64,000 nt of DNA, taken from the IMG/VR virus record IMGVR_UViG_3300025684_000010. One strand, 5' to 3'. This document shows, piece by piece, positions 1-28,477 of the stretch. Positions within the stretch are counted from its first letter, which is position 1. Each line of letters starts with the position of its first letter. Made by a program: the position numbers and the translations under genes. This DNA comes from a virus. The notes beneath the pieces were generated by a model, which ran no database searches, was not told the origin of the DNA, and saw only the letters and a list, made by a program, of their open reading frames with translations.

Positions 1-1074
1 AGATGTTGGTACAGGTACGTTTTGAGCGATATGATTCATTTTCTTCAAACCATGTAATAACTCAAAGTTCTCAGGAAAGCCCATCATATGTAAAGCTTCT
101 CGAATTGTTAATGACCTTTCTTCAGTAGGATGCATTGTATCAACCATGTTACGACCAATTACTGCATTCATATATTCGCCAAAGACATGTACTGAACCAT
201 CCCATACACCTTTACCATCAGCAAACTTCATAATGGCATGATCTGAGTATTTGGCGCCTTTTTCGTTTCCTGTTCTGTGGAACCATTCGTTGGCTTCTTT
301 CATCCAACCTTTCTTACAAACATAATTCAGAGTTGTCTTAACGTCCTCTTCAACCATAAGCTCTCGAACATCACGATTTGTTTTTGTCTTAATGAAATTG
401 TAATATGGTTCGTCAGGTACATGCTTATTAATAATCAAATCTTGATGTAATGCGTCAACAGGAATCTCTTGTAAGTATTCAGCAAAGTTCTTTCTTGGTT
501 TATTATACCAATTCATTACAGGAGCAGAGTCAGACTTCCAGCCGATCGCAAAGGTCCTGTCGCGTCCTTGAGGAACTCCGTGGAATCTCGTCGATGTTTT
601 ATATAGGGACAAAGAATAACCCCTCTCAGCGCAAATTTCGTACAGTCTATTTGCTACAGGACGACCTTTATTTGTAAACAATGCAGGAGCATTCTCAACA
701 ATCACTACCTTTGCACCAAGTCTATCAATACCATCTTGAAAGACCATATACATAAATTCGTTCTTAGCACAACCTGCGCCTTTACTCTCTGTAGTTGTTC
801 CTGTATTTAATTGAGATAGAGCAGCACATGGTGGAGTACCAGAGACCACATCAACTTGCGTTAGTCCACTGTTTTCTACTTCATCAAGTTTAATATAAGG
901 AATATCGCGTCCCATTGTATTTTGTTGGTAGTTTACGTAATGACTATCGTTATCCTCAAACCCACCATAAGAGTAGATTGCTGTAGGTGGTTTACCAAAC
1001 GCTCTTTCTGCGCCTAGCATTTGTCCACCGATAAGCGGAATGAGTGGTGCCCATGTTATTTCTTTTTTGTTCAT
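1..1074 (-). CDS. C5-cytosine DNA methyltransferase-like protein (3' end runs off the window; not in the ORF track)
   Basis: Manual translation from ATG at 1074 (MNKKEITWAPLIPLIGGQM...). Motif IV GTPPC, motif VI IVENAP, motif VIII GVPQGRDRTF, motif IX LTIREALHMMGFP, motif X-like IAQNVP. ATGA overlap with the upstream gene. Confidence 0.85.
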   Translation of the reverse strand, partial: MNKKEITWAPLIPLIGGQMLGAERAFGKPPTAIYSYGGFEDNDSHYVNYQQNTMGRDIPYIKLDEVENSGLTQVDVVSGTPPCAALSQLNTGTTTESKGAGCAKNEFMYMVFQDGIDRLGAKVVIVENAPALFTNKGRPVANRLYEICAERGYSLSLYKTSTRFHGVPQGRDRTFAIGWKSDSAPVMNWYNKPRKNFAEYLQEIPVDALHQDLIINKHVPDEPYYNFIKTKTNRDVRELMVEEDVKTTLNYVCKKGWMKEANEWFHRTGNEKGAKYSDHAIMKFADGKGVWDGSVHVFGEYMNAVIGRNMVDTMHPTEERSLTIREALHMMGFPENFELLHGLKKMNHIAQNVPVPTS

Positions 1075-2312
1075 CCGAAAAAATCCTCAAGTGTTGCAGC
1101 TACTTTCTTATCAAATTGCGTTACATCTGGTGCAACATAATCATTATCAATCGCTGTCATAATTTTATTGTTTAAGAATGTACCATCGTAGTATTCAGGT
1201 TTACATATAAGTTTACGTAATCCTGTAATTACCGATTCATACTCCTGTTCATTATTTAATAACCTATTCATCCTTTCTTTAAATTCAGCAGGAGTTTTCG
1301 GTCTTAAAAAATCTGGTATTGGCAAATGCCCCTGTTCATCATAAGATGGATGCAAGAACGGTATCACACCAGCATGTACCATTTCAATATACTTTGAAGT
1401 TACCCAACCTTTTGCGATTGGAATAATAAAAGTAAATTTAACATTATTCATTTTAGCCATTACATCATCAAGATGAATAGATCCTTTGAACCTTGCGTCT
1501 GTTTCGGTATTAGGATGTTCCCATTTACCATAGATCTCAACATCATCATGTTCATCTAATACCCAATCCTTTAATAAATTGTATCTTGAAGGTTTAGCTT
1601 CGTTTAAGATAACCATAAAAGGAACGTTACGATTTAAGTTGAACTGTTCAGTATGTTGATAGTTAATACAGAAACAAGTTTCCATTCCTGCATATGTTGA
1701 AGGCATTGATCTGTCGTAACGATCTTGTTCTTCGTAAGATTTAATACTACTTACTTTATATTCATAATCGTATTGACCTAAAGATATATTTGGTAAATTG
1801 AATATGTCTCTTGATTGATTCATAACATACCGAGGATCGTTTACAATTTCAACATAATCAGGATTCTCTTCGTTAATCCAAATCGCAATTGGTGATGTAT
1901 AATTCTTTGTCATATCAATCACAGAAGCTTTAAGTGTACGATCTTTAACTTGTTCAATTTTGCCTGGGATCGTAACTGTACCAACTTGACCAACCATTAA
2001 AACAGTATAGTCTAATTTCATTGACCTACTCTTAAAGTAATCAATCACGTGATTAAAGAATCTATCTTCATCGTTGTTTTTAATACCTTTCCAAATATCA
2101 ATTACATTATCAAAGGGAAACAACTCCAATGATTCAGACTCATTTAGAGTACTGAAATCAGATCGTCCGATAATGTAAAATGTTTTGTCTGGGTTATTAT
2201 TTGCGAGTGCAATAAGTACTGTAGACGGCTCGTTGTCTCCACCAATAGGAGAGAAGCGATTCCGCTTAAACTTGACCGATTTACCGATCTTTCCAAATCC
2301 AATGTTTTTCAT
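1071..2312 (-). CDS. GT-B fold DNA glycosyltransferase, T4 beta-glucosyltransferase-like
   Basis: C-terminal half (VEIYGKW...FKGSIHLDDVMAKMNN..FTFII...VTSKYIEM..AGVIPFLHPSYD) follows the pattern of the T4 BGT C-terminal domain; lies near a gp42 homolog. Confidence 0.55.
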   Translation of the reverse strand: MKNIGFGKIGKSVKFKRNRFSPIGGDNEPSTVLIALANNNPDKTFYIIGRSDFSTLNESESLELFPFDNVIDIWKGIKNNDEDRFFNHVIDYFKSRSMKLDYTVLMVGQVGTVTIPGKIEQVKDRTLKASVIDMTKNYTSPIAIWINEENPDYVEIVNDPRYVMNQSRDIFNLPNISLGQYDYEYKVSSIKSYEEQDRYDRSMPSTYAGMETCFCINYQHTEQFNLNRNVPFMVILNEAKPSRYNLLKDWVLDEHDDVEIYGKWEHPNTETDARFKGSIHLDDVMAKMNNVKFTFIIPIAKGWVTSKYIEMVHAGVIPFLHPSYDEQGHLPIPDFLRPKTPAEFKERMNRLLNNEQEYESVITGLRKLICKPEYYDGTFLNNKIMTAIDNDYVAPDVTQFDKKVAATLEDFFG

Positions 2313-2339
2313 AATATAAAGTTTGCCGTTCTGTTAAAT

Positions 2340-2774
2340 TTATTTATCCGAATTGACCACACGTTGTCTGAGCTCTGACGAACTGAAAGAATGCCTTCTG
2401 CGATTATAATGAACAGGACATAAACCTTTTCCAGTATGCTCAACATCTTTGTATTCTTCACCAACAATTCTAATATCAGGATTGATAGTCAAAATCATAT
2501 CAACCAATTCTTGTTCAGTTGAGAAAGGTATTACCTCGTCTACATATTTACAAGAAGATAACTGTATGTATCTTTCAAATGGAGTCTGAACTGGTTTGTT
2601 CTTTGCATTAGGACGATCCACGGTTGGGTCAATCAATAATCCAACAATTAAATAATCGCACAACGTCTTTGCTTCTTGTAGCATTACAATATGACCTGCA
2701 TGAAACAGATCAAACGTTGAACATGTAAATCCGACCTTACAATCTGCCGGTAATTTTTTCCTATCTAGAAACAT
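2340..2774 (-). CDS. Cytidylyltransferase, TagD/glycerol-3-phosphate cytidylyltransferase-like
   Basis: TFDLFHAGH (HxGH), CDYLIVGL, CKYVDEVIP and the C-terminal SSSELR signature. Confidence 0.85.
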   Translation of the reverse strand: MFLDRKKLPADCKVGFTCSTFDLFHAGHIVMLQEAKTLCDYLIVGLLIDPTVDRPNAKNKPVQTPFERYIQLSSCKYVDEVIPFSTEQELVDMILTINPDIRIVGEEYKDVEHTGKGLCPVHYNRRRHSFSSSELRQRVVNSDK

Positions 2775-3681
2775 TTTCTTCCCTCAAAATTTCTTTAACT
2801 CGTTTAGCATACACCGTATAGAGTGGTGTTTTATCAGTTGGTAGATAATGTATATATGCAGGGAAGGTTTTAAAATTTAACACTGCGTCGAGTTTTAGAA
2901 CCGTAGTCCAAATACGTACGTCACTACCAAACCTGCTTACCTCAAATCCATTCTCTGATAACCATTTATAATAAATTGCATATATGTTTTGTTCTATACA
3001 CCAAAACTTTCCACCCATAGATCGGTTATTACCTGGAGTTCCATACTTTGGTATAACAGAACCACCATAACCTTTTTTGTTTTTATACTTGTGTACACCT
3101 TCCATAATAAGAACATACATATCTTTACAAGCTGCTCTTTTAAAGAACTCAAGATAATGATCGTTTCTTGTATGTACAACCTGACCAGAATTCATACTAA
3201 AATAAGGTTTGGTTCTCATTGTAGTAATATCAACCTTATCTTTATAAATTGGATCAAGTACTGCTTCTACAAACTTACCCATAACACCTAATGCAGATTC
3301 GTTATAGAATACATAAGGTTCAAAGAAATAGTGGTCAACAGGCTTGAGTAATAACGTATCGTCATCAATCATCATTGCTCTGTTGATGTTTAATATTTCA
3401 TGTGCATAAGGAAAGACCAACCATTTGATTGCCACTCCATATACATCAAGTATTCGTAACAACCACTCTTCATCAAAGAAATGCTTTACTTTATCAATCA
3501 CATCAGTTACATAGTGAATTGTTATCTTATCTGATATACTTTCTACGTTATAGGTAGTATGCCGATCATCTAAGATAACATGCAAATTCATATATGTATC
3601 TTCGTCGTATACATTATACATCTCAAGAAGGTTTTCAATCCTTGAGATTTTATTGCTTACTATGAATATATCATTCTGCAT
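2761..3681 (-). CDS. GT-A fold (GT8-like) nucleotide-diphospho-sugar transferase
   Basis: MMIDDDTLL DxD motif, FSMNSGQVV, IEQ and IHY motifs. Start moved to MQNDIF (3681). Confidence 0.6.
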   Translation of the reverse strand: MQNDIFIVSNKISRIENLLEMYNVYDEDTYMNLHVILDDRHTTYNVESISDKITIHYVTDVIDKVKHFFDEEWLLRILDVYGVAIKWLVFPYAHEILNINRAMMIDDDTLLLKPVDHYFFEPYVFYNESALGVMGKFVEAVLDPIYKDKVDITTMRTKPYFSMNSGQVVHTRNDHYLEFFKRAACKDMYVLIMEGVHKYKNKKGYGGSVIPKYGTPGNNRSMGGKFWCIEQNIYAIYYKWLSENGFEVSRFGSDVRIWTTVLKLDAVLNFKTFPAYIHYLPTDKTPLYTVYAKRVKEILREENVSR

Positions 3682-4717
3682 AGTCGATAATATCCAATAG
3701 ATCGTTAACACACTGAATGATAAAGTCTTTATCTGGGTGGTACTTGTATACTCGAATCACTTCGGCAGCTGTTAGCGTTAACAACTCATACTTATCTATC
3801 CAATGATTATATGCCAACATTGTATTAATCACAAGATCTTGAGTATGACTATCATAACGATTGATTATTAAACTTGCGATAAACTTTGCTATGTCAAGTT
3901 CACGACAACCAAATACATTAGGAATAGGATCAATTAAGTACATTGTGTCACTGTCATTAAACAGCATGTTCTTAATACCAAAATCTCCATGACAATAACC
4001 ATACTCTAATTCAATAGAAGATAGTCTTTCAACAACATCATTAAAAGGTTCAAGGTTAGCATTAGTACAGTGATTTACGATTCTTGCTATATAATCATCA
4101 AAGGTTAGAAACTTTGTTTCGATTGGCATATTACCAAAAGCATCAAGAGCTTCTTGAATTAACGCCAATGCTTTATAAGGACTGTCTTCGAAGAAATTAG
4201 GATCGTTTTCAATATAATCCATTGTAATCGTATCACCAACCACTCGATGAATCTCAGGTGTACATACTGCCCAACCGGTTTTCTCATACCAAAGTGCGGC
4301 TTCATGAGCATTCTTTGCTGTCTTGTGAACAAACTTACCGTCGGTGTAAATGTCAGAGCCTGATAGGCCACCTTCCAATTCACGAATATCAGCCTCTACA
4401 AAATCTTCAGGTGTAATACCTTTGTCGTCAATGTAATATGCTGCGAGTGGTTTATTAAAACTGAGTGCATGGTACTTTACGTTATTCTTTTGTAACCACG
4501 ATTCAATTTGAGGTCCATACTTATCTGCAGCTTCTTCTCTACTCCTACAAGAAATAGATCCACGAGCTGTATATATGTCGATAGTCCAACCTTGATTATA
4601 TAGTTCATTACACTTTTCAATTAGAGCAACGTTGGGTTTTGCGTTATCCCAATCTCTATTTGATGTAAATGCTAGAGTGTCATCAAAGTCAAGGACTATT
4701 CTTTTATGTGACGACAT
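3671..4717 (-). CDS. Fusion of a HAD phosphatase (capsule-biosynthesis type) and an APH/choline-kinase-like phosphotransferase
   Basis: N-terminal LDFDDTL, YTARG, YIDDK; C-terminal HGDFGIKN, LIDP and DIAKF. Confidence 0.8.
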   Translation of the reverse strand: MSSHKRIVLDFDDTLAFTSNRDWDNAKPNVALIEKCNELYNQGWTIDIYTARGSISCRSREEAADKYGPQIESWLQKNNVKYHALSFNKPLAAYYIDDKGITPEDFVEADIRELEGGLSGSDIYTDGKFVHKTAKNAHEAALWYEKTGWAVCTPEIHRVVGDTITMDYIENDPNFFEDSPYKALALIQEALDAFGNMPIETKFLTFDDYIARIVNHCTNANLEPFNDVVERLSSIELEYGYCHGDFGIKNMLFNDSDTMYLIDPIPNVFGCRELDIAKFIASLIINRYDSHTQDLVINTMLAYNHWIDKYELLTLTAAEVIRVYKYHPDKDFIIQCVNDLLDIIDYAE

Positions 4718-4719
4718 AA

Positions 4720-4923
4720 TTAGTCCTTCTTAAAATAAATGCTACGAGTTAGTCCACCAAAGAGGTAGGTGAAGTATAAGAAGAATGGAGCCGCAATTAC
4801 GAGTCGTATTGTATCAGAAGTTGCACCAACCAATTCACCGAGACCGATGAGAGCTGAGATTAATCCAATAATTAACACGACGGTTGCTACGCCAAATCCA
4901 AAGTCTTTCAATTTTTCTTTCAT
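4720..4923 (-). CDS. Small two-TM membrane protein
   Basis: Two hydrophobic segments; first gene after the promoter at 4951-4979. Confidence 0.55.
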   Translation of the reverse strand: MKEKLKDFGFGVATVVLIIGLISALIGLGELVGATSDTIRLVIAAPFFLYFTYLFGGLTRSIYFKKD

Positions 4924-4950
4924 AATATAGTTTCCTTGTTAATATTTACT

Positions 4951-4979
4951 ATTATAACAAATTTTTGTGCAGTTGTCAA
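4951..4979 (-). promoter_or_regulatory. Sigma70-consensus early promoter
   Basis: TTGACA-N17-TATAAT on the minus strand; heads the HAD/GT/CTase/BGT/MTase operon. Confidence 0.8.
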
Positions 4980-4983
4980 TAGT

Positions 4984-5436
4984 TTATTTAGCCAATCTGA
5001 AATCTGTTTCAAATTTACATCCTGACTCAATAAAGAGTTGTTTTGACTTATCATACGATTCTATCCATCTTTGAGGAACATCTTCTGCAGCCATTACAAT
5101 TCTATTTATGCCAACTTGGATAATTCCTTTTGCACATTCATTACAGACAGGTAAACCCCACACGTATATTGTTGTATCTTTTAACGATACTCCATGAAAG
5201 GAGGCATTGAAGATTGCATTCATTTCAGCATGCACAACGAGTTCGTATTTCAGTTCTCTATTGTTATACTTATCTGCTGAATCATCAATACCTTTAGGAA
5301 AGCCATTATAACCAGTTGCTAGGATACGTTTATCTTTTACAATAACCGCTCCTATTTGTTTACTTGGATCTTTTGACCAACTTGAAACTTCTCGGGCAAC
5401 TCGTATAAATCTTTGATCCCATTTATTTTCCTGCAT
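4984..5436 (-). CDS. cd: dCMP deaminase
   Basis: SKDPSKQIGAVIV, GYNGFPKG, HAEMNA and PVCNECAK zinc motifs. Confidence 0.92.
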   Translation of the reverse strand: MQENKWDQRFIRVAREVSSWSKDPSKQIGAVIVKDKRILATGYNGFPKGIDDSADKYNNRELKYELVVHAEMNAIFNASFHGVSLKDTTIYVWGLPVCNECAKGIIQVGINRIVMAAEDVPQRWIESYDKSKQLFIESGCKFETDFRLAK

Positions 5437-6091
5437 TAATTAACGCCTCAATAAATTCAAAATGTCTTTCATATACATGAAGATTAGTTGCAGTCCAAAT
5501 CAAGTCACCGACCTCAACTTCGAGATCATAAGCAAGTTGACCTTGAACAAACTTTGCCCAAGCAACATCATTGTTATAACCAAAGACAGCATCGTTAGAT
5601 CTCATTACATAATGGGATATAAGTTTACCATCTCGAATCATAAACGTATTCGCAAATGTACACATAAAGTCAGACATACCATCACGGTTGAAATCAAGAT
5701 GCATACTTGGACGATTATAGATCATTGCAGCTCTACGGCTGTTTGGATTAGCTTTCAACTCTCGAAGTACATGTTTATATTGATTACCATTCTCTTCAGA
5801 GTAAATACACCAACCATAATTAGAATTGATCTTACCTTCGTTAGAAGATATATCTTTCCAAATCTGTGGTGTCTCTCCAGGAATATCATCAACATATAGT
5901 GATTCAGACATATACCACTCAAGTTCACGCTCGATGTACTTATATGCTGGTGTTCTAATCAACCAATTTTCATCAGCAACAAATGATTCACCAAGAACTT
6001 CAATAGTCTTAGCGCCTGACTTGTCAATGACATAATCTTCTGCAAGATACTTGTCAATTAGGTCTGCTCGGATATCATTTGTTGTTTTCAT
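5423..6091 (-). CDS. 42: dCMP hydroxymethylase (T4 gp42 homolog)
   Basis: Close match to T4 gp42 as I recall it: DKSGAKTIEVLGESFVADE, RELEWY, DIPGETPQIW, INSNYGW, DGMSDFMCT, RSNDAVFGYNND (Asp at the cytosine-specificity position), LHVYERHF. Confidence 0.9.
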   Translation of the reverse strand: MKTTNDIRADLIDKYLAEDYVIDKSGAKTIEVLGESFVADENWLIRTPAYKYIERELEWYMSESLYVDDIPGETPQIWKDISSNEGKINSNYGWCIYSEENGNQYKHVLRELKANPNSRRAAMIYNRPSMHLDFNRDGMSDFMCTFANTFMIRDGKLISHYVMRSNDAVFGYNNDVAWAKFVQGQLAYDLEVEVGDLIWTATNLHVYERHFEFIEALINAGK

Positions 6092-6345
6092 TAGATGGAT
6101 TCCATTAACGCTTCAATATCAGATACTTCTGCAATTAGATCAGAAACATTTTGATTATGGAAAGCTCTTGCGGTTTTCCTTAGGATTGATTTTGGGATCT
6201 GAACTTCATCAGCCAAAGCATTGATTGCTTCTTTCTGAAAATCACGTTCTGATTCCATTCGAGTAAACGAATTACTCATTTCTTCCATACAACCACGGAT
6301 TCGTTTTTTGTCTGCGTCACTTGACGGTATCATTATATTGCTCAT
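6091..6345 (-). CDS. Small helical dsDNA-binding protein (T4 DsbA/GapR-like)
   Basis: Size and pattern (EAINALADEVQIPKSILRKTARAFHNQN) resemble the DsbA family. Confidence 0.45.
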   Translation of the reverse strand: MSNIMIPSSDADKKRIRGCMEEMSNSFTRMESERDFQKEAINALADEVQIPKSILRKTARAFHNQNVSDLIAEVSDIEALMESI

Positions 6346-6689
6346 TATTTAGTACTCCTGTTAAATACATCTTTAGTTGAATCCTGACCTTTAATACCTT
6401 GACGACAGTAAGAGACAAAGAAACTTGAATAGTTAATTAAATCTTTTGCTGAATCTTCAAGGGACTCAAAGTTAGGATCGTAATCATCTGACTGCATTGC
6501 TTCCATTACTGATTTCATACGTAGCATTTTTGCATGCATAATATCATGAATGGTTGTAATTCCGTTAGGATAGTAGTCAGCTTGTTGAACAGTCGAGTTT
6601 GGATTTTGATAATCTCTCGACTTTTTCAATTGAAGGTCAACACACTCTTGTAGTACATCGACCGAAACTGGGTTGGTTGGTTTTGTCAT
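6345..6689 (-). CDS. Nucleotide-modification-associated domain 1 (Nmad1/DUF1599-like) protein
   Basis: LQLKKSRDY...KMLRM...FESLEDSAKDLINYSSF pattern of this all-alpha family; adjacent to gp42. Confidence 0.6.
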   Translation of the reverse strand: MTKPTNPVSVDVLQECVDLQLKKSRDYQNPNSTVQQADYYPNGITTIHDIMHAKMLRMKSVMEAMQSDDYDPNFESLEDSAKDLINYSSFFVSYCRQGIKGQDSTKDVFNRSTK

Positions 6690-6712
6690 ATAGACTCCAT
6701 AATAAAAAATAT

Positions 6713-6741
6713 ATTATATCAAAGATTCTTGATAATGTCAA
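6713..6741 (-). promoter_or_regulatory. Sigma70-consensus early promoter
   Basis: TTGACA-N17-TATAAT upstream of Nmad1-dsbA-42-cd. Confidence 0.8.
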
Positions 6742-6757
6742 TGGAAATTTCGTATAC

Positions 6758-7303
6758 TCATCGGTTTTTTTCCATAGCAACGTCTTTGAAGTTGTTATGT
6801 TCTATTATACCATACTTTTCTACAGATGTAAATAGTTTTTTCTTACTATTGTAACGAATCCATAAAGAACGATTAACTTTTGGTTTGCCTTCCTTTGTTG
6901 TCATCATAGTTTTTACAACAGCTTTTGGTATAAAGAAGTAATGTAATTTTTCTGTGTCAGGGTTAACAACAACCGCTCGGATAGCACCTTTCTTTAAGAC
7001 ACCGTCATGAGATCTTACGCTTGAGAGTTCGGCTGAACTGCTCTTGGCCGATATGTGTAATGTACCCGTTTTGGATTCAGATTCATCTGTGAAGTCTTCG
7101 TGGATACCGTCGTTGAATTCGTATAGACCATTTGAGCAGAGAGCGAACGATTGTTCTATTAAATGTTCTAGGTTAAAATCCGCAGGCCGTTGTAGAACAG
7201 CCTCACGGAAAGGACTTTCTTTATAGACTGGGTGGTTTTCAACAACGCAGTCTGCCATCAGTTTCAATTTAAGGTTTGTGTTGACCTTTTCATAATATGC
7301 CAT
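6758..7303 (-). CDS. Hypothetical protein, possible PD-(D/E)xK nuclease fold
   Basis: EHLIE...DFTDESESKT resembles an E...D...(D/E)xK arrangement; has its own promoter. Confidence 0.4.
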   Translation of the reverse strand: MAYYEKVNTNLKLKLMADCVVENHPVYKESPFREAVLQRPADFNLEHLIEQSFALCSNGLYEFNDGIHEDFTDESESKTGTLHISAKSSSAELSSVRSHDGVLKKGAIRAVVVNPDTEKLHYFFIPKAVVKTMMTTKEGKPKVNRSLWIRYNSKKKLFTSVEKYGIIEHNNFKDVAMEKNR

Positions 7304-7335
7304 AATGTAAGTCCATTAATTTAAATTATAGATAT

Positions 7336-7364
7336 ATTATAATCTATATCATAAAGAATGTCAA
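7336..7364 (-). promoter_or_regulatory. Sigma70-consensus early promoter
   Basis: TTGACA-N17-TATAAT. Confidence 0.8.
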
Positions 7365-7381
7365 TGGTTTATTTCAGTTAT

Positions 7382-7468
7382 TTAGAGAACTTTTCTCCAA
7401 ACGTTCTGAATTCTGTTCCTTTTCATCATATGATGGAACTTTTTGTATTGTTTTGCTATGTATTTCAT
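7382..7468 (-). CDS. 28-aa basic peptide (MKYIAKQYKKFHHMMKRNRIQNVWRKVL)
   Basis: Manual translation; AGGAAGGA Shine-Dalgarno just upstream. Confidence 0.5.
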   Translation of the reverse strand: MKYIAKQYKKFHHMMKRNRIQNVWRKVL

Positions 7469-7549
7469 GTTTCCTTCCTGTTGCCTACATGTTACAGTAA
7501 TGTAACATATAAATTTATATATACAAGAACTACTAACAAAATCAATAAT

Positions 7550-7777
7550 TTATACAACTTTTGGTGGAACTGGTAATAGAAACGTTCTTACTGTTGCCAA
7601 TTTATCTTCGGCTTCGGCAAGTTTTGCGACTTCAGCATCAAGAGTTTCAACTGTACCAGGATGTTCTGCTACTCCAACTCCATTCTCTAAAAATACCGCA
7701 ATGTTTGCTGTATGTTCTGCAATGGCTGCTTCATACCTTGAAACTAACGCATTAACTAATATTTCTCTAATTGCCAT
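7550..7777 (-). CDS. Hypothetical helical protein
   Basis: ORF track, with start moved to MAIREIL after a GGAG RBS. Confidence 0.6.
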   Translation of the reverse strand: MAIREILVNALVSRYEAAIAEHTANIAVFLENGVGVAEHPGTVETLDAEVAKLAEAEDKLATVRTFLLPVPPKVV

Positions 7778-7778
7778 T

Positions 7779-8192
7779 TTACTCTCCTTTAAGTTTTGGT
7801 AGGATACCATGATTGCCTTCATGAGATGGAGCCGTCCATCCTTCAGGTTTCATCAAGTCAGGTAATCCTAGTGGGTTTGGCCGTCCTTCCTTTACTCCAG
7901 GTTCTTTGGCCATGTTTGCTTCGAGAACTGCGTCCCAAGCTTTATAAGGATCGACTCCGAAGGCATCAAGAGTACCGATTGCCACTACACAAAGGTCAAC
8001 TAAACCATCAACGATTTCTTCGGAGTCGATATCTTTTTGAGCTGTTCTTGTTTCTTCGAGTTCTTCTTGTAGGAAGTTAACTCTAAATTCCAAAAACGCT
8101 TTCAACTTTTCCACATCTGCGTTTGCTACCCAGTTGTGTGTTTTATATTTTGATTGCATATCAACAATATCTTTTACCCAATCCTTACTCAT
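7779..8192 (-). CDS. MazG-like/all-alpha NTP pyrophosphohydrolase (candidate dCTPase/dUTPase)
   Basis: FLQEELEE...EIVDGLVDL acidic motifs, VLEANMAK, DLMKPEGW. Confidence 0.75.
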   Translation of the reverse strand: MSKDWVKDIVDMQSKYKTHNWVANADVEKLKAFLEFRVNFLQEELEETRTAQKDIDSEEIVDGLVDLCVVAIGTLDAFGVDPYKAWDAVLEANMAKEPGVKEGRPNPLGLPDLMKPEGWTAPSHEGNHGILPKLKGE

Positions 8193-8404
8193 AATTTATC
8201 CCTTAGTTCCATAAATCCACCAATTGCTTCACCATCCATAGTAATCTGTGGAAAGGTTCTTGCAGTTGGAAACTTTTCAAAAAATTCATCTTGTTTGTAA
8301 TCAACATCCAAGGATTTGTATACGAAGTCCAATCCTTTGGACTCACAAAGTTGCTTTGCCATATTACAGTATCCGCAATTTGGTTTTCCGTATATTTCTA
8401 TCAT
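8189..8404 (-). CDS. nrdC: Glutaredoxin
   Basis: CGYC active site, TFPQI, IGGF. Confidence 0.9.
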   Translation of the reverse strand: MIEIYGKPNCGYCNMAKQLCESKGLDFVYKSLDVDYKQDEFFEKFPTARTFPQITMDGEAIGGFMELRDKL

Positions 8405-8688
8405 ACTAGTTTTAAACCACCAGAACCAGGCATGATTAGTCCAGTTGTGGCTTCAATTACTTGCGCTTTCAACTCGTCCATTGGCTCTGCCAAGAACATA
8501 ACTGAATTTTCGTTTATCACGATTGGTTCACGAGTAGCATAAGGAACGAATGGCACCATTCCAATTTTACCTTCACCAGCTGGGACTAAAAGAATACCAT
8601 CCGTCAAGGTATAGAATCCTTTATCATATTTTACTTTTGCCACAACTTCTTCACCAGTTGTAAGCCTTACGATTTGTACATCACTCAT
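8401..8688 (-). CDS. Conserved T4-like hypothetical protein (beta-rich, Sm-like)
   Basis: VQIVRLTTGEEVVAKV pattern of small proteins found near gp43 in marine T4-likes. Confidence 0.5.
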   Translation of the reverse strand: MSDVQIVRLTTGEEVVAKVKYDKGFYTLTDGILLVPAGEGKIGMVPFVPYATREPIVINENSVMFLAEPMDELKAQVIEATTGLIMPGSGGLKLV

Positions 8689-8719
8689 AATTTTTCCTCA
8701 TTAATTTGTTATTGTGTAT

Positions 8720-8748
8720 ATTATAACACAGTTTGATATAAATGTCAA
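8720..8748 (-). promoter_or_regulatory. Sigma70-consensus early promoter
   Basis: TTGACA-N17-TATAAT. Confidence 0.8.
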
Positions 8749-8753
8749 TAGTC

Positions 8754-11312
8754 TTAACTAAAAAAGTCATCGAGAGTATTAACCTTCTCCGCTGACCATC
8801 CAACCGCATCAAGGATTGACTGTATGGGACTCAAGAATACTTTGTCAAACTGAAGTTCAGTATCAACGTAATCGTGTAGTCCAAGTTGTTTTGGCAATAA
8901 GCCAGGAACCGATATTGCGTTCTCACGAATAGGATTAGGTACCTTTAAATATAATAACTTGACTTTGTCTCCACCTTGGATAGTTTCAAACTTCTTGTCA
9001 AGTCCTTTCTCTTTAAGGAAGTGGTTATACATTAAGGATCCACGAACATGCATTGGAGTACCTTTTCTGTATATAGATCCTTTGTCTTGGTACTTCTTAA
9101 GTTCATTAACACCCGAGGTCTTTGCGATGGCCATAGGATCTAATGTACGAAACAGTTCTTTGAAATCTTTAATGAAACCTTGAGTTGTTTCTTCATCAGT
9201 ATTCATAATGATCTCAAAACATTGCTTGAGTTTATCACGACAGATCTCAGGAGTCGAAGATCTTACTGATTCTAATCCTGTTACCGATACCTTAGGAGTA
9301 TCGTAGTGAACGCCTTCTGAGTTCAATGTATTTAGAATATATCGTTTCTTAGCAACAAAGATTGCTCGGTTAGTAATCTTTTCACGTTTCATTACCATTG
9401 CGTTACGATATGTACCTAGATCAGCAGCAAGCTTTTCATAACCATCTTCGATGACTTGTTCAATTTTAGTTGAACAGATTCTATCAAGGAACTCTTCACC
9501 TTTATCTTTATCAATATCAGTCGTACCAAACACTTCTTTAATCAGAGGACCGAAGTCAACATAGATAGAGTCGGTATCAATATAGATGATATAGTCATGG
9601 TCAGTTGTACCTAGAGTTCTATTTAAATAATCATTAACCGACTTTTCAGCATAACGAATACCTAACTGACCGCTTGTTGTAATTGCCTCGGCCATTTCAT
9701 TAATATAGTATAAGAAATATTTGTTAGCAGTAGCACCATACAAACTGTTCATGGCAATCTTAATTGACATTTGTGAATTGTGTAATTGATTGATCTCACG
9801 CTTTAGGCGTTTGAGTTCTCTTGGATCTGTCTCAACCTCAAACTGTTGTTCAGCAAGGATCATCTGCTTTTTGATAACAGAACGGTTATTATAGTATTCA
9901 TCAATAATTTCAGGAATGATTCCTTGCTTCTTATTTGAAAAACAAACACCGTTAGCAGCCACTGATACATTAGGACGATCATTCTTATATTCACGATTCA
10001 GTACCATGTCTTGAGTCACGTATTCACGATCATTGGGCATATAGGTTTCTGGTGACATGTTATATTGTAACATTAAGTGAGGGTATAGAGAGTTAAGGTC
10101 AAAAGATACAACCCAAGGATGCATTCCAACTTTAGGATCTTTAACATAACCACCAACAAGATCACCAGCAACCATTCCTGGTCCACCTTTAAGTGGAGGA
10201 ACAATTTTATCTTTCATTAGTTTACGATATATGGTTGATTCCCATATACCAACTGTACCAAACGCATCACCGTAGTTAACACCACCGTCATATGCAACTG
10301 TCATAACCAACGCAAGCAATCCTGTCTCTTCTTCGAGACGAGCAATCAGTTGAGTATCTTTTAAATTATAGTCAAGATACAATTGAGGATTCTCTTCCCA
10401 TAATCCAGTTAACGAACCATATTCAGAGTAATCAATTTTCTTTTCACCAAGGACAGCGTAAGCAATATGATCTAACTTATACGATTCTTGAGGACCGTAC
10501 TTATAACCAAACTTTTTAAAGCAATCCATATAATCGAGAACAACAACACCCATAATACGATATGTTGATGCAACCTTACCAAAGATCTCTCGAGAGGTTT
10601 GTTTTAATGATTTGTGTGGAGATAAACGCTTTGTGGTTTCTTCTCCAAGTAACGCGGTGATACGAGTTACGATGTATTGAATATCAAAGTATTCAACGTT
10701 CCAACCAGTTACAACATCAGGATAATCAGTTGTCCATAGTTTCATAAAGTATTGAAGTAAAGCACGTTCACCATCAATACCATCAAACAATACGAACTCA
10801 ATCTTATCTTGAGGAATATCAGTAACAGTTTTAGTCTTGTCATAATCTTTGCGACCAAGTACATAATATACATCATCTCGAGAACTATGATAAGCAATAG
10901 ACGTAATCGGTTTATCGGCAGTGTCCATATTTGGATAACCATCACTGATGTCAACCTCAATATCAAACGATACGATATTGACCTGGCTTACGTCATATGT
11001 AATCTTACCAGGATACTCTTCTTGAATAAACTGAGTTACATAATTTGTTGAACCAAACGTCTTCATACCGTGAACACCTTTGTATTCTTCGATGAAGTTC
11101 TTTGCTTCTCGCATATCACCAAACTTGTGTGGAGATACAGGTAAGTTACCTTCTAACGAATGGAAACCTTCTGCACCAGACTTTGGAGTATGAATGTATA
11201 GAGTAGGCTGAAATGGAACGCGGTACGAGAAACGTTTACCATTTTCGTAACCTCGATGTAAAATATTGTTTCCGTATCTTTCAACGGATGTATAGAATTT
11301 AGTCAATGCCAT
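8754..11312 (-). CDS. 43: Family B DNA polymerase (gp43)
   Basis: Exo I FDIE, GWNVEYFD, SFDLNSLYP, KIAMNSLYG, YIDTDSIY; C-terminal PIP-like TLDDFF. Confidence 0.97.
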   Translation of the reverse strand: MALTKFYTSVERYGNNILHRGYENGKRFSYRVPFQPTLYIHTPKSGAEGFHSLEGNLPVSPHKFGDMREAKNFIEEYKGVHGMKTFGSTNYVTQFIQEEYPGKITYDVSQVNIVSFDIEVDISDGYPNMDTADKPITSIAYHSSRDDVYYVLGRKDYDKTKTVTDIPQDKIEFVLFDGIDGERALLQYFMKLWTTDYPDVVTGWNVEYFDIQYIVTRITALLGEETTKRLSPHKSLKQTSREIFGKVASTYRIMGVVVLDYMDCFKKFGYKYGPQESYKLDHIAYAVLGEKKIDYSEYGSLTGLWEENPQLYLDYNLKDTQLIARLEEETGLLALVMTVAYDGGVNYGDAFGTVGIWESTIYRKLMKDKIVPPLKGGPGMVAGDLVGGYVKDPKVGMHPWVVSFDLNSLYPHLMLQYNMSPETYMPNDREYVTQDMVLNREYKNDRPNVSVAANGVCFSNKKQGIIPEIIDEYYNNRSVIKKQMILAEQQFEVETDPRELKRLKREINQLHNSQMSIKIAMNSLYGATANKYFLYYINEMAEAITTSGQLGIRYAEKSVNDYLNRTLGTTDHDYIIYIDTDSIYVDFGPLIKEVFGTTDIDKDKGEEFLDRICSTKIEQVIEDGYEKLAADLGTYRNAMVMKREKITNRAIFVAKKRYILNTLNSEGVHYDTPKVSVTGLESVRSSTPEICRDKLKQCFEIIMNTDEETTQGFIKDFKELFRTLDPMAIAKTSGVNELKKYQDKGSIYRKGTPMHVRGSLMYNHFLKEKGLDKKFETIQGGDKVKLLYLKVPNPIRENAISVPGLLPKQLGLHDYVDTELQFDKVFLSPIQSILDAVGWSAEKVNTLDDFFS

Positions 11313-14141: not shown

Positions 14142-14720
14142 TTACTCCTGGGTGGCAGATTTTTCTTGTTCGGCTTTTGCGTTGTCTATTGCTGCTTGGG
14201 CGCGTGCGATATAAGCTGTCATTTGGTTTCTTTGCTTTGTAATTTTTTTCTTCTTCTTTAATGCTCTATCCCATTTGAGTTGAGATACTTTCTGAGAAAA
14301 TACAACTCCATGTAGGTGGTCAAATTCATGTAAGAAACATCTTGCGGTATAACCTTCAAAGTTTCCGGTTTGTGGATTACCATCTTCATCATACCACGAA
14401 GCTTCAACGGATGTTGGTCGATGCATTTTGAGAAACACATCAGGGTAGGTAAGACATCCTTCAAAGTCAAGTTCTGTTTCTTCCGAGACAGATAGGACTT
14501 TAGGATTAACGAACATCATTGTATTCTCTTTGTCTTCACCGATAATAAACACTTTATAATCAATACCAACTTGAGAAGCAGATAACCCTAGACCTCTTTT
14601 GGAGACCATCAGCTCTACCATATCTTCCTTGGTTTGCTTTAAATCAATCTGTGGATTTTTGATGTCAACATCTTGTAATTCTTTAAATAGAATTGGATCC
14701 TTTGTAGATACTAATTTCAT
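14142..14720 (-). CDS. def: Peptide deformylase
   Basis: GLGLSASQVG, EGCLT and HEFDH motifs. Confidence 0.93.
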   Translation of the reverse strand: MKLVSTKDPILFKELQDVDIKNPQIDLKQTKEDMVELMVSKRGLGLSASQVGIDYKVFIIGEDKENTMMFVNPKVLSVSEETELDFEGCLTYPDVFLKMHRPTSVEASWYDEDGNPQTGNFEGYTARCFLHEFDHLHGVVFSQKVSQLKWDRALKKKKKITKQRNQMTAYIARAQAAIDNAKAEQEKSATQE

Positions 14721-15106
14721 AATTTACCTTCTTCTCTCAATGATTGTCTAATTTCACTTGACATAATATAATCTTTAGACGGTTTCATATCATAGTTAGA
14801 TATTCCATTACCAAGTCCGTTGAGGGACCCAACAATATTTGGAGTACATACTATAACATAATGCTGTCCATCATAGAAGCCTTCTCTTTCTAGTGCTATC
14901 GTTATAGAATTGATAACATCTATCTCACCGAATGGAGCGTCTTCTCCTTCCGATTTATATACTTCTTTGACTATTATAACAACTTGTCCTGTGAATGTCA
15001 AGGCCTTTTTAAATAAATTTGTATGACCTGCATGCCAGGGTTGCCATTTACCTACAATTTGAATAGAAGGTTTCTTCCAATCAAATGGGTTATCATAATC
15101 TAACAT
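14717..15106 (-). CDS. HxGH nucleotidyltransferase (cytidylyltransferase-like)
   Basis: GKWQPWHAGH and C-terminal SSEIRQ. Confidence 0.75.
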   Translation of the reverse strand: MLDYDNPFDWKKPSIQIVGKWQPWHAGHTNLFKKALTFTGQVVIIVKEVYKSEGEDAPFGEIDVINSITIALEREGFYDGQHYVIVCTPNIVGSLNGLGNGISNYDMKPSKDYIMSSEIRQSLREEGKL

Positions 15107-15111
15107 AACTT

Positions 15112-15645
15112 TTACTCAGCTGCGTTGTTCTTTTTTTCTTCTGCGTCAGCATCGTTCTTTACTTTTGCCGCTTTAAGCTTGCCTTCAAAATCATCAATGA
15201 ATTCATTAATGTAATCAGGTAATATATTAGCGGACACAGCTTCACCAGTAGAATCAAATACTTCATTCTCAAGCGTTTGTCTTTGTGATGCTTTAAATTT
15301 AATATACATCTGCTTCTTCTCTTTCGAGATTCTGCGTAGGAATGCATACCAAATGATTTGCGTAAAATAAGCAAATGGGTTTTGAGATTTCTCTGGATTA
15401 AAGTTATGTATATATTGTAGACAGTTCTCTATTCCGTCTGAGACCATTTCCTCTTTATACATGTATCCACTGAAATTTGGTCGTGTTGCTAATCGTTGGG
15501 CAATTAACATAATGCACTTGCCGATGTAATCAGGCACTTGTGGATTCTTCTCTCCACTTTCTTCTGCCTCGACGCACTTACTCTTATATTCGATTAATGC
15601 GGCAAGGAGATCTTTATTGTTTACGTAGTTCTTTTTCTTAGCCAT
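15112..15645 (-). CDS. 55: Late-transcription sigma factor gp55
   Basis: NYVNNKDL, RPNFSGYMYKEEMVSDGIENC, NPFAYFTQI. Confidence 0.95.
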   Translation of the reverse strand: MAKKKNYVNNKDLLAALIEYKSKCVEAEESGEKNPQVPDYIGKCIMLIAQRLATRPNFSGYMYKEEMVSDGIENCLQYIHNFNPEKSQNPFAYFTQIIWYAFLRRISKEKKQMYIKFKASQRQTLENEVFDSTGEAVSANILPDYINEFIDDFEGKLKAAKVKNDADAEEKKNNAAE

Positions 15646-26197: not shown

Positions 26198-26274
26198 GCG
26201 CTTGTAGCTCAGCTGGATAGAGCATCGGTCTTCTAAACCGAGGGTCGCAGGTTCGAATCCTGCCAGGCGCGCCA
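26198..26274 (+). tRNA. tRNA-Arg(UCU)
   Basis: Acceptor GCGCTTG/CAGGCGC, D-loop AGCTGGATAG, anticodon stem TCGGT-CT TCT AA-ACCGA, GTTCGAATC, encoded CCA. Confidence 0.95.
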
Positions 26275-28400: not shown

Positions 28401-28477
28401 GCGGCTGTAGTTCAGCTGGATAGAATATCGGTCTACGAAACCGAAGGTCATAGGTTCGACTCCTATCAGCCGCGCCA
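28401..28477 (+). tRNA. tRNA-Arg(ACG)
   Basis: Acceptor GCGGCTG/CAGCCGC, anticodon TCGGT-CT ACG AA-ACCGA, GTTCGACTC, encoded CCA. Confidence 0.95.

Follow-up and report, generated by a model that had tools for sequence, protein, structure and literature searches.

Three overlapping genes on the minus strand of a phage genome raise the question of which activated compound they produce and onto what it is transferred. They occupy positions 2340-4717 of a 64,000-nt stretch of IMG/VR virus record IMGVR_UViG_3300025684_000010, in the following called the window. With genes for a gp43 polymerase, gp46/47, a UvsW-type helicase and topoisomerase II, the window represents a T4-like phage, and its source is an uncultured marine member of this group. 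In the initial annotation, the genes were read as a donor-synthesis module: a fusion of a HAD phosphatase and a kinase, a TagD-like cytidylyltransferase and a DxD glycosyltransferase would activate a polyol- or amine-phosphate as a CDP compound, to be added to glycosylated 5-hydroxymethylcytosine (hmC) or to a surface glycan. From the analyses described here it appears probable that the genes belong to a unit which glycosylates hmC in the phage DNA with a sugar donor made by the phage itself, the sugar most likely being a heptose derived from host heptose-7-phosphate. The linkage to hmC DNA and the succession of kinase, nucleotidyltransferase and transferase were thereby retained from the first reading, whereas the CDP-polyol or CDP-amine part, modelled on TagD and lic pathways, was not supported. 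The functional unit also reaches further than the three genes and includes those of a glycosyltransferase of the GT-B fold (1071-2312) and of a dCMP hydroxymethylase (5423-6091), both on the minus strand.

Open reading frames (ORFs), motifs and homologs all confirmed the three overlapping genes. The first one (3671-4717) encodes the HAD-APH fusion protein of 348 aa, the second (2761-3681) a GT8-like glycosyltransferase of the GT-A fold and apparently of the retaining type (306 aa, designated GT-A), and the third (2340-2774) a small HxGH nucleotidyltransferase of the cytidylyltransferase-like superfamily (144 aa, designated CT). The first two genes share 11 nt (3671-3681), the last two 14 nt (2761-2774). 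The GT-A ORF is listed as 2761-3711 with a GTG start, but the ATG at 3681 is considered the true start since every homolog begins with MQNDIF. The arrangement is not a product of chance, as conserved homologs of all three genes are numerous and occur in the same order.

A cluster of the same design has been characterized experimentally. Pyle, Lund, O'Toole and Saleh (bioRxiv 10.1101/2023.12.21.572611) reconstituted in E. coli a metagenomic phage cluster, contig 53, assigned to subclass III hypermodification, which encodes a bifunctional HAD-APH enzyme, a cytidylyltransferase (CTP_transf) and a 429-aa GT-B enzyme resembling T4 BGT. All three enzymes were required to obtain 5-HepmC (449 u) and a di-heptose (641 u) on 5hmC DNA; by analogy, heptosyl-5hmC may also be formed by the enzymes of the window. 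In the annotation table of that study, TIGR01689 and TIGR02199 appear under the APH-phosphotransferase and NTP-transferase gene classes. Since the same two models match the HAD domain and CT of the window, its module can be regarded as a member of this demonstrated kind, with which it shares the HAD-APH enzyme, the CTP_transf-like enzyme, a BGT-like GT-B of about 420 aa and 5hmC as acceptor. It is a variant in several respects. The 5hmC of contig 53 arises after replication through a C5-methyltransferase and a TET-like dioxygenase, whereas that of the window is made before replication by a gp42-type enzyme. In addition, a GT8-like gene is inserted between those for the fusion and CT, and a protein with similarity to cytosine methyltransferases is constantly present, all within a T4-like genome. 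In the E. coli experiments, the transferase alone was inactive although this host makes ADP-heptose, a hint that the donor may differ from ADP-heptose in carrier or anomer.

From these data we infer the following order of steps. The APH-fold domain would phosphorylate the anomeric carbon of a host sugar-phosphate, yielding a bisphosphate, from which the fused HAD domain would strip the original terminal phosphate to leave a sugar-1-phosphate. Together, both reactions would be an ATP-driven, irreversible stand-in for a phosphomutase. CT would turn the sugar-1-phosphate into a nucleoside diphosphate (NDP)-sugar, and the BGT-like GT-B would move the sugar onto 5-hmC in DNA. Finally, the GT8-like GT-A might add a further, probably alpha-linked sugar or act on a separate set of hmC sites. 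Heptose is favoured as the sugar by the precedent of Pyle et al., by the similarity of CT to rfaE and by the requirement for a donor not provided by the host.

The HAD domain comprises residues 1-112 of the fusion (nt 4382-4717). In an alignment of 16 homologs, its motif residues D10, D12, T50, K89, D97 and D98 are invariant. It matches PDB 9iqw (E 1.7e-16), PDB 1xpj and phrog_1238, is 35-40% identical to HAD proteins of arabinosylating phages, and reaches 58.4 bits with TIGR01689 (cut-off 162), indicating a homolog but not an equivalog. The closest solved relative, 9iqw, is a 134-aa 'capsule biosynthesis protein' which we take to be AfhF of phage HY126, since its code belongs to the same series as 9iqz, titled phage HY126 glycosyltransferase. 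In the remaining part of the fusion (residues ~113-348), K132, H243-G-D245...N250 and D263 are invariant among the 16 homologs and correspond to the ATP-binding Lys, the HxDxxxxN loop of the APH type and the metal Asp, respectively; the catalytic loop reads HGDFGxxN, and the metal-binding Asp lies within IDP. No Pfam family, PF01636 included, matched this region at E <= 0.01. The nearest named protein-atlas clusters carry PF01636, and weak similarity was detected to methylthioribose kinase (E 0.0056) and, over 168 columns in hhalign (E 0.0017), to the C-terminal kinase of an AfhE homolog encoded by phage Stupor. Judged by motifs, atlas neighbours and these matches, the region is probably an APH-fold sugar kinase. 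Hundreds of homologs of the fusion were detected on contigs of up to 224 kb. When one genome for each of 185,579 prokaryotic species was searched, three full-length homologs were found, two of them on contigs of metagenome-assembled genomes (MAGs) with phage genes and the third near a methylase look-alike on a 9-kb MAG contig.

The proteins closest to both domains act on pentoses in the Afh route of phages RB69, HY126 and DLP3. There, the kinase half of AfhE phosphorylates arabinose-5-phosphate at C1, the HAD enzyme AfhF removes the C5 phosphate, the N-terminal half of AfhE uridylylates the product, and GT-B enzymes arabinosylate 5-hydroxycytosine (PMC13326640 and He et al. cited therein). Anomeric kinase, HAD removal of the terminal phosphate, nucleotidyltransferase and GT-B DNA transferases are thus common to both systems; the HAD enzymes are homologous and the kinases probably so. 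Accordingly, the fusion could act on a pentose-5-phosphate, either arabinose-5-phosphate supplied by host KdsD or ribose-5-phosphate, to give a pentofuranose-1-phosphate and an NDP-pentose, with pentosyl-hmC instead of heptosyl-hmC in the DNA. The match of the HAD domain to the presumed AfhF would fit this, as would the alignments of the kinase with the AfhE homolog and with methylthioribose kinase, which phosphorylates a furanose at the anomeric carbon. We nevertheless regard a pentose donor as unlikely. An isomerase gene always adjoins in Afh clusters (PMC13326640), but no sugar-phosphate isomerase (SIS/SIS_2) was detected in the window, in the complete 170.7-kb genome of a relative (G014) or in Agathobaculum phage AB434P2, so that the starting sugar-phosphate must come from the host. 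The Afh system has 5-hydroxycytosine as acceptor, made by a thymidylate synthase (TS) homolog with the D169N exchange, whereas the TS homolog of the window retains D169 and is of the hmC type. Furthermore, the nucleotidyltransferase of the Afh system is fused to the kinase and of the GlmU/MurU type, while in the window the HAD domain is fused to the kinase and the nucleotidyltransferase is of the HxGH type, a fold different from that of the AfhE N-terminal domain. Finally, the same architecture as in the window yielded heptose in E. coli (10.1101/2023.12.21.572611).

CT matches PF01467 with 57.2 bits (threshold 21), and its HxGH motif, HAGH, is invariant. The top curated model is rfaE_dom_II (TIGR02199, HldE domain II; E 1.4e-21, 76.8 bits, cut-off 181.5), which is also the top-scoring model for four relatives of CT. 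The TagD model (TIGR01518) scores lower (E 6e-14, 52.2 bits, cut-off 165.4). NMN, pantetheine and FMN adenylyltransferases were rejected as candidates; their models are far below those of rfaE and TagD, and the gene contexts of CT are sugar-related.

These contexts became apparent among the homologs of CT in viral contigs, of which at least 595 matches were found. In L117 (1722-8138), a CT homolog is located at the position of RmlA and followed by genes for an RmlB/GMD-like 4,6-dehydratase, an RmlC epimerase and SDRs; the cluster further contains FkbM methyltransferase, GT17 and GT11 genes. The RmlA position is likewise taken by a CT homolog in L086, L108, L114 and L122. In L105 (6998-8148) and L119 (6072-7185), the CT homolog directly precedes a eukaryote-type phosphomannomutase (PMM). 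The CT homologs of these clusters are 55-60% identical to CT of the window and look like non-orthologous displacements of the usual sugar nucleotidyltransferase. Both contexts are those expected for a sugar-1-phosphate nucleotidyltransferase, which points to such a function for CT and not to a CDP-polyol or CDP-amine enzyme. They also suggest that sugar-1-phosphate is supplied either by the HAD-kinase fusion or by a mutase. In a CT tree, all fusion-linked CTs are on one side of a branch with a support of 92/79, and the CTs of gut siphophages group with the marine ones. A more distant CT (37%) was observed in Synechococcus phage Sf-CH8 (L124, 2035-8905), where the cluster also encodes an unfused AfhF-like HAD protein, another nucleotidyltransferase and three glycosyltransferases.

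The activation of an alcohol phosphate (glycerol-, ribitol-, choline- or ethanolamine-phosphate) and the transfer of the phospho-alcohol, with glycosyl-hmC or a surface glycan as acceptor, have to be weighed against these data. Full-length alignments of CT were obtained with TagD (E 3e-14) and with each half of the human ethanolamine-phosphate cytidylyltransferase (E 4.5e-22), the motifs KYVDEVI and RxxxxSS(S/T) being shared, and choline and ethanolamine kinases also have the APH fold. However, CT misses the TagD equivalog cut-off by a wide margin (52 versus 165 bits) and scores higher with rfaE domain II, and its relatives are found next to RmlB/C-like genes or PMM, in NDP-sugar contexts. The fused phosphatase is invariant, but would have no role on the way from a kinase to a CDP-alcohol; it makes sense just in a bisphosphate route such as those to ADP-heptose or Afh UDP-arabinose. 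The transferases of the cluster are GT8-like and BGT/AGT-like Leloir enzymes, and a gene resembling those of TagF, LicD or a CDP-alcohol transferase was not observed there. The product described by Pyle et al. was also a sugar, not a phospho-alcohol (10.1101/2023.12.21.572611). CDP-alcohol synthesis thus appears very improbable.

Hydroxymethylcytosine is provided by the gp42-type dCMP hydroxymethylase (5423-6091, minus strand), the source of 5-hmdCMP. The protein matches the family of PDB 1b5e (E 7e-71) with conserved MRSND...NND and shows 55%-level similarity to T4 gp42. The signature of 5-hydroxycytosine synthases is D169N (PMC13326640). The protein of the window has an Asp at the cytosine-specifying position equivalent to ThyA N177 and keeps D169; it is therefore a synthase of hmC rather than of 5-hydroxycytosine.

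To which genes the fusion is linked was determined in 76 IMG/VR loci with fusion homologs of at least 53% identity. Downstream partners were counted in 65 loci with at least 2.5 kb of downstream sequence and gp42 in 41 loci extending upstream by 3 kb or more; the loci are from related phages and are not independent samples. CT, a GT-B gene and the methylase look-alike accompany the fusion in all 65 loci, the GT-B being BGT-like in 59 and AGT-like (PF11440) in six. A gp42-type gene is present in 40 out of 41 loci. GT-A was found in just 31 of the 65. The conserved partner of fusion and CT is thus the GT-B at 1071-2312, while GT-A, which had been drawn as the third member of the trio, is an accessory second transferase present in about half of the relatives. 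At least five gene orders were encountered among the fusion loci, so that the linkage does not merely reflect one frozen block. The same core module is also present in an independent lineage, gut Firmicutes siphophages, represented by Agathobaculum phage AB434P2 and the human-gut phage scaffold MT837767. Their gene order is dUTPase_2-like, nucleoside monophosphate kinase, fusion, CT, GT-B-like, cytosine-type TS homolog and DNA polymerase III alpha, and their CT is 51% identical to that of the window.

This distribution is relevant for a role at the cell surface. The rfaE-like and GT8 genes of marine pelagimyophages have been interpreted as serving remodelling of the host surface (PMC7029224), and the genes of the window could likewise be auxiliary metabolic genes that alter lipopolysaccharide (LPS) or capsule, for example for superinfection exclusion, with no role in DNA. 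GT8 enzymes are typical of LPS, some CT homologs reside in glycan-type clusters with GT11, GT17 and FkbM genes and no hydroxymethylase nearby, and no TS homolog was detected in the 10-kb stretch of Sf-CH8 that contains its CT/HAD/glycosyltransferase cluster. The fusion, however, is strictly linked to gp42-type and BGT/AGT-type genes, and it lies within the replication module and behind an early-type promoter. In the gut siphophages, the module adjoins genes of deoxynucleoside triphosphate metabolism and a DNA polymerase, and the cluster of the same design modifies DNA experimentally (10.1101/2023.12.21.572611). Surface remodelling as the function is thus hardly to be expected. In the initial annotation, an occurrence of the trio mainly in LPS or capsule islands devoid of DNA-modification genes had been named as a finding that would speak against the module; since the fusion is nearly absent from bacterial genomes and a gp42-type gene adjoins it in almost every locus, the module is not mainly a component of such islands.

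GT-B (413 aa) would be the cognate DNA transferase for the donor of the module. With a first alignment of eight sequences, no match to PDB sequences was obtained. With a family profile built from 48 sequences, T4 BGT was the only significant PDB match (E 1.8e-6); the alignment covers the C-terminal domain and pairs R243, K307 and E310 with R191, R269 and E272 of T4 BGT, which bind the NDP. The connection of GT-B to hmC DNA is drawn from its context, the linkage with module and gp42 (65/65).

Several observations weigh against a heptose donor made by the module and used on hmC. CT is far below the equivalog cut-off of rfaE_dom_II (77 versus 181 bits). Among the 78 best loci with CT homologs, 68 are without the fusion, and the complete genomes G002 and G003 also contain a CT homolog but no fusion; with most phage CT homologs in this situation, CT is not specific to the fusion pathway. 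For the two domains of the fusion, the closest relatives are AfhF and AfhE, which act on pentoses, and methylthioribose kinase, and a furanose substrate would fit accordingly. With no isomerase encoded, the heptose route depends on GmhA of the host, which is uncertain for a Gram-positive host. The AlphaFold model of GT-B is poor (predicted local distance difference test, pLDDT, 52), and the matches of this low-confidence model to GT-B folds, including BGT and the HY126 glycosyltransferase, lend only weak support. The kinship to contig 53 is read solely from shared architecture and model matches, and heptose was assigned by Pyle et al. from the mass.

Two further systems are instructive for comparison with the proposed heptose donor. 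The bacterial ADP-heptose pathway (GmhA, HldE, GmhB) likewise combines a kinase with a HAD-IIIA phosphatase and an HxGH nucleotidyltransferase, and the top model of CT represents the C-terminal domain of HldE. In that pathway, a ribokinase-fold kinase is fused to the nucleotidyltransferase, whereas the kinase of the window is of the APH fold and fused to the phosphatase. The bacterial pathway serves LPS; the module of the window apparently targets DNA, is without GmhA and scores far below the equivalog cut-offs. Glucosylation of hmC in T4 shares with the window the gp42 ortholog, a GT-B related to BGT (or to AGT in some relatives of the window) and the location among replication genes, but T4 draws on UDP-glucose of the host and encodes no genes for donor synthesis.

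For GT-A, neither Pfam (including Glyco_transf_8) nor NCBIfam yielded a match, and no match to its protein was found in phage records by tblastn. The AlphaFold model (pLDDT 86) resembles the GT8 domain of WbbM (Z 16.2, root mean square deviation 3.6, 224 aligned residues), glycogenin (Z 14-15) and LgtC (Z 13.7). Invariant residues are D106-D107-D108, N164-S-G-Q167, H278 and K284. The DxD motif as well as H278 and K284 presumably correspond to LgtC residues, a DxD and a C-terminal His/Lys motif being what we take to be characteristic of GT8. According to the model, GT-A would be a GT8-like enzyme of the retaining type. A 1282-bp contig from ENA encodes a protein of 253 aa (P0016), of which the first ~165 residues are 97% identical to GT-A, followed by a fragment of an SIS domain (PF01380, weak gmhA/MurQ matches), the only SIS sequence encountered. 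Either the contig was assembled chimerically, or a true recombination event may have brought a sugar-phosphate isomerase into the locus.

Next to GT-B, at positions 1-1074 on the minus strand, a protein with the fold of C5-cytosine methyltransferases (PF00145) is encoded, which is cut by the window edge. In relatives, this methylase look-alike has 408 aa; a full-length version is contained in L014 (12608-13834). In the two gut siphophages, no such gene was detected close to the module. Tet_JBP proteins were not found in the relatives, but this search had no positive control and is uninformative. The look-alike resides in a genome in which C5 of cytosine is already substituted. Rather than methylate DNA, it may participate in the modification, for instance as a partner in base flipping or by reading the modified base. 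In L014, whose region corresponds to sequence beyond the low end of the window, a 289-aa DxD protein with a weak match to Glyco_transf_21 is encoded two genes past the methylase look-alike and before gp45/gp44 (14529-15398). This protein may represent a third transferase belonging to the island.

Beyond hmC glycosylation with a self-made donor as such, more specific features may be considered. The donor may be one absent from the host, either a heptose on a carrier or with an anomer other than in ADP-beta-heptose, or another sugar altogether. The GT8-like enzyme may extend the sugar to an alpha-linked disaccharide on hmC, a DNA modification which is chemically undescribed. That all of these hold jointly in these abundant marine T4-like phages, a host-absent NDP-sugar, a GT8-made disaccharide on hmC and participation of the methylase-fold protein, is possible, though we would not expect it.

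Glycosylation of phage DNA determines resistance to restriction enzymes, CRISPR nucleases and type IV systems, and it complicates sequencing and engineering of phages. The design with a self-supplied donor, in which a HAD-kinase fusion, an HxGH nucleotidyltransferase and a BGT-like transferase are combined, has been demonstrated once so far, in a cluster of the methylase/TET type. It is no rare metagenomic oddity; among marine T4-like phages using gp42, a large group has it as a fixed component of the replication module, and it recurs in gut Firmicutes siphophages. For the widespread marine myophage genes annotated as 'rfaE-like' or 'cytidylyltransferase', a testable reading is obtained, that of sugar-1-phosphate nucleotidyltransferases able to replace RmlA-type enzymes.

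The genes of the module look like one early transcription unit, since they follow a promoter (4979-4951) and a small membrane ORF. This promoter (4951-4979, minus strand), which heads the unit, is of the sigma-70 type and early-like, with TTGACA and TATAAT separated by 17 nt, a match of 12/12, and an upstream TG. Perfect 12/12 consensus promoters of this type occur four times on the minus strand within 8.8 kb (8748-8720, 7364-7336, 6741-6713 and 4979-4951), three of them with the extended -10 TG, and are probably early promoters of the phage. The first gene past the promoter, orf67 (4720-4923, minus strand), specifies a small hydrophobic protein of 67 aa with two membrane helices predicted by eye. 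No family match was obtained for it in Pfam and phrog scans, and homologs are present in at least L010 and L011. The order of the unit would then be promoter, orf67, fusion, GT-A, CT, GT-B and methylase look-alike, with the three overlapping genes in its middle.

Upstream of the promoter, the minus strand carries genes for a dCMP deaminase (4984-5436; PF00383, phrog_174), followed by that for the hydroxymethylase, and for a MazG/PRA-PH-like pyrophosphohydrolase (7779-8192; PF01503, E 1.6e-9), a candidate dCTPase of the gp56 type. A megablast search with positions 1-9000 of the window against 50,697 phage records gave no match. Elsewhere in the window, two tRNA-Arg genes are located on the plus strand at 26198-26274 and 28401-28477, with the anticodons TCT and ACG.

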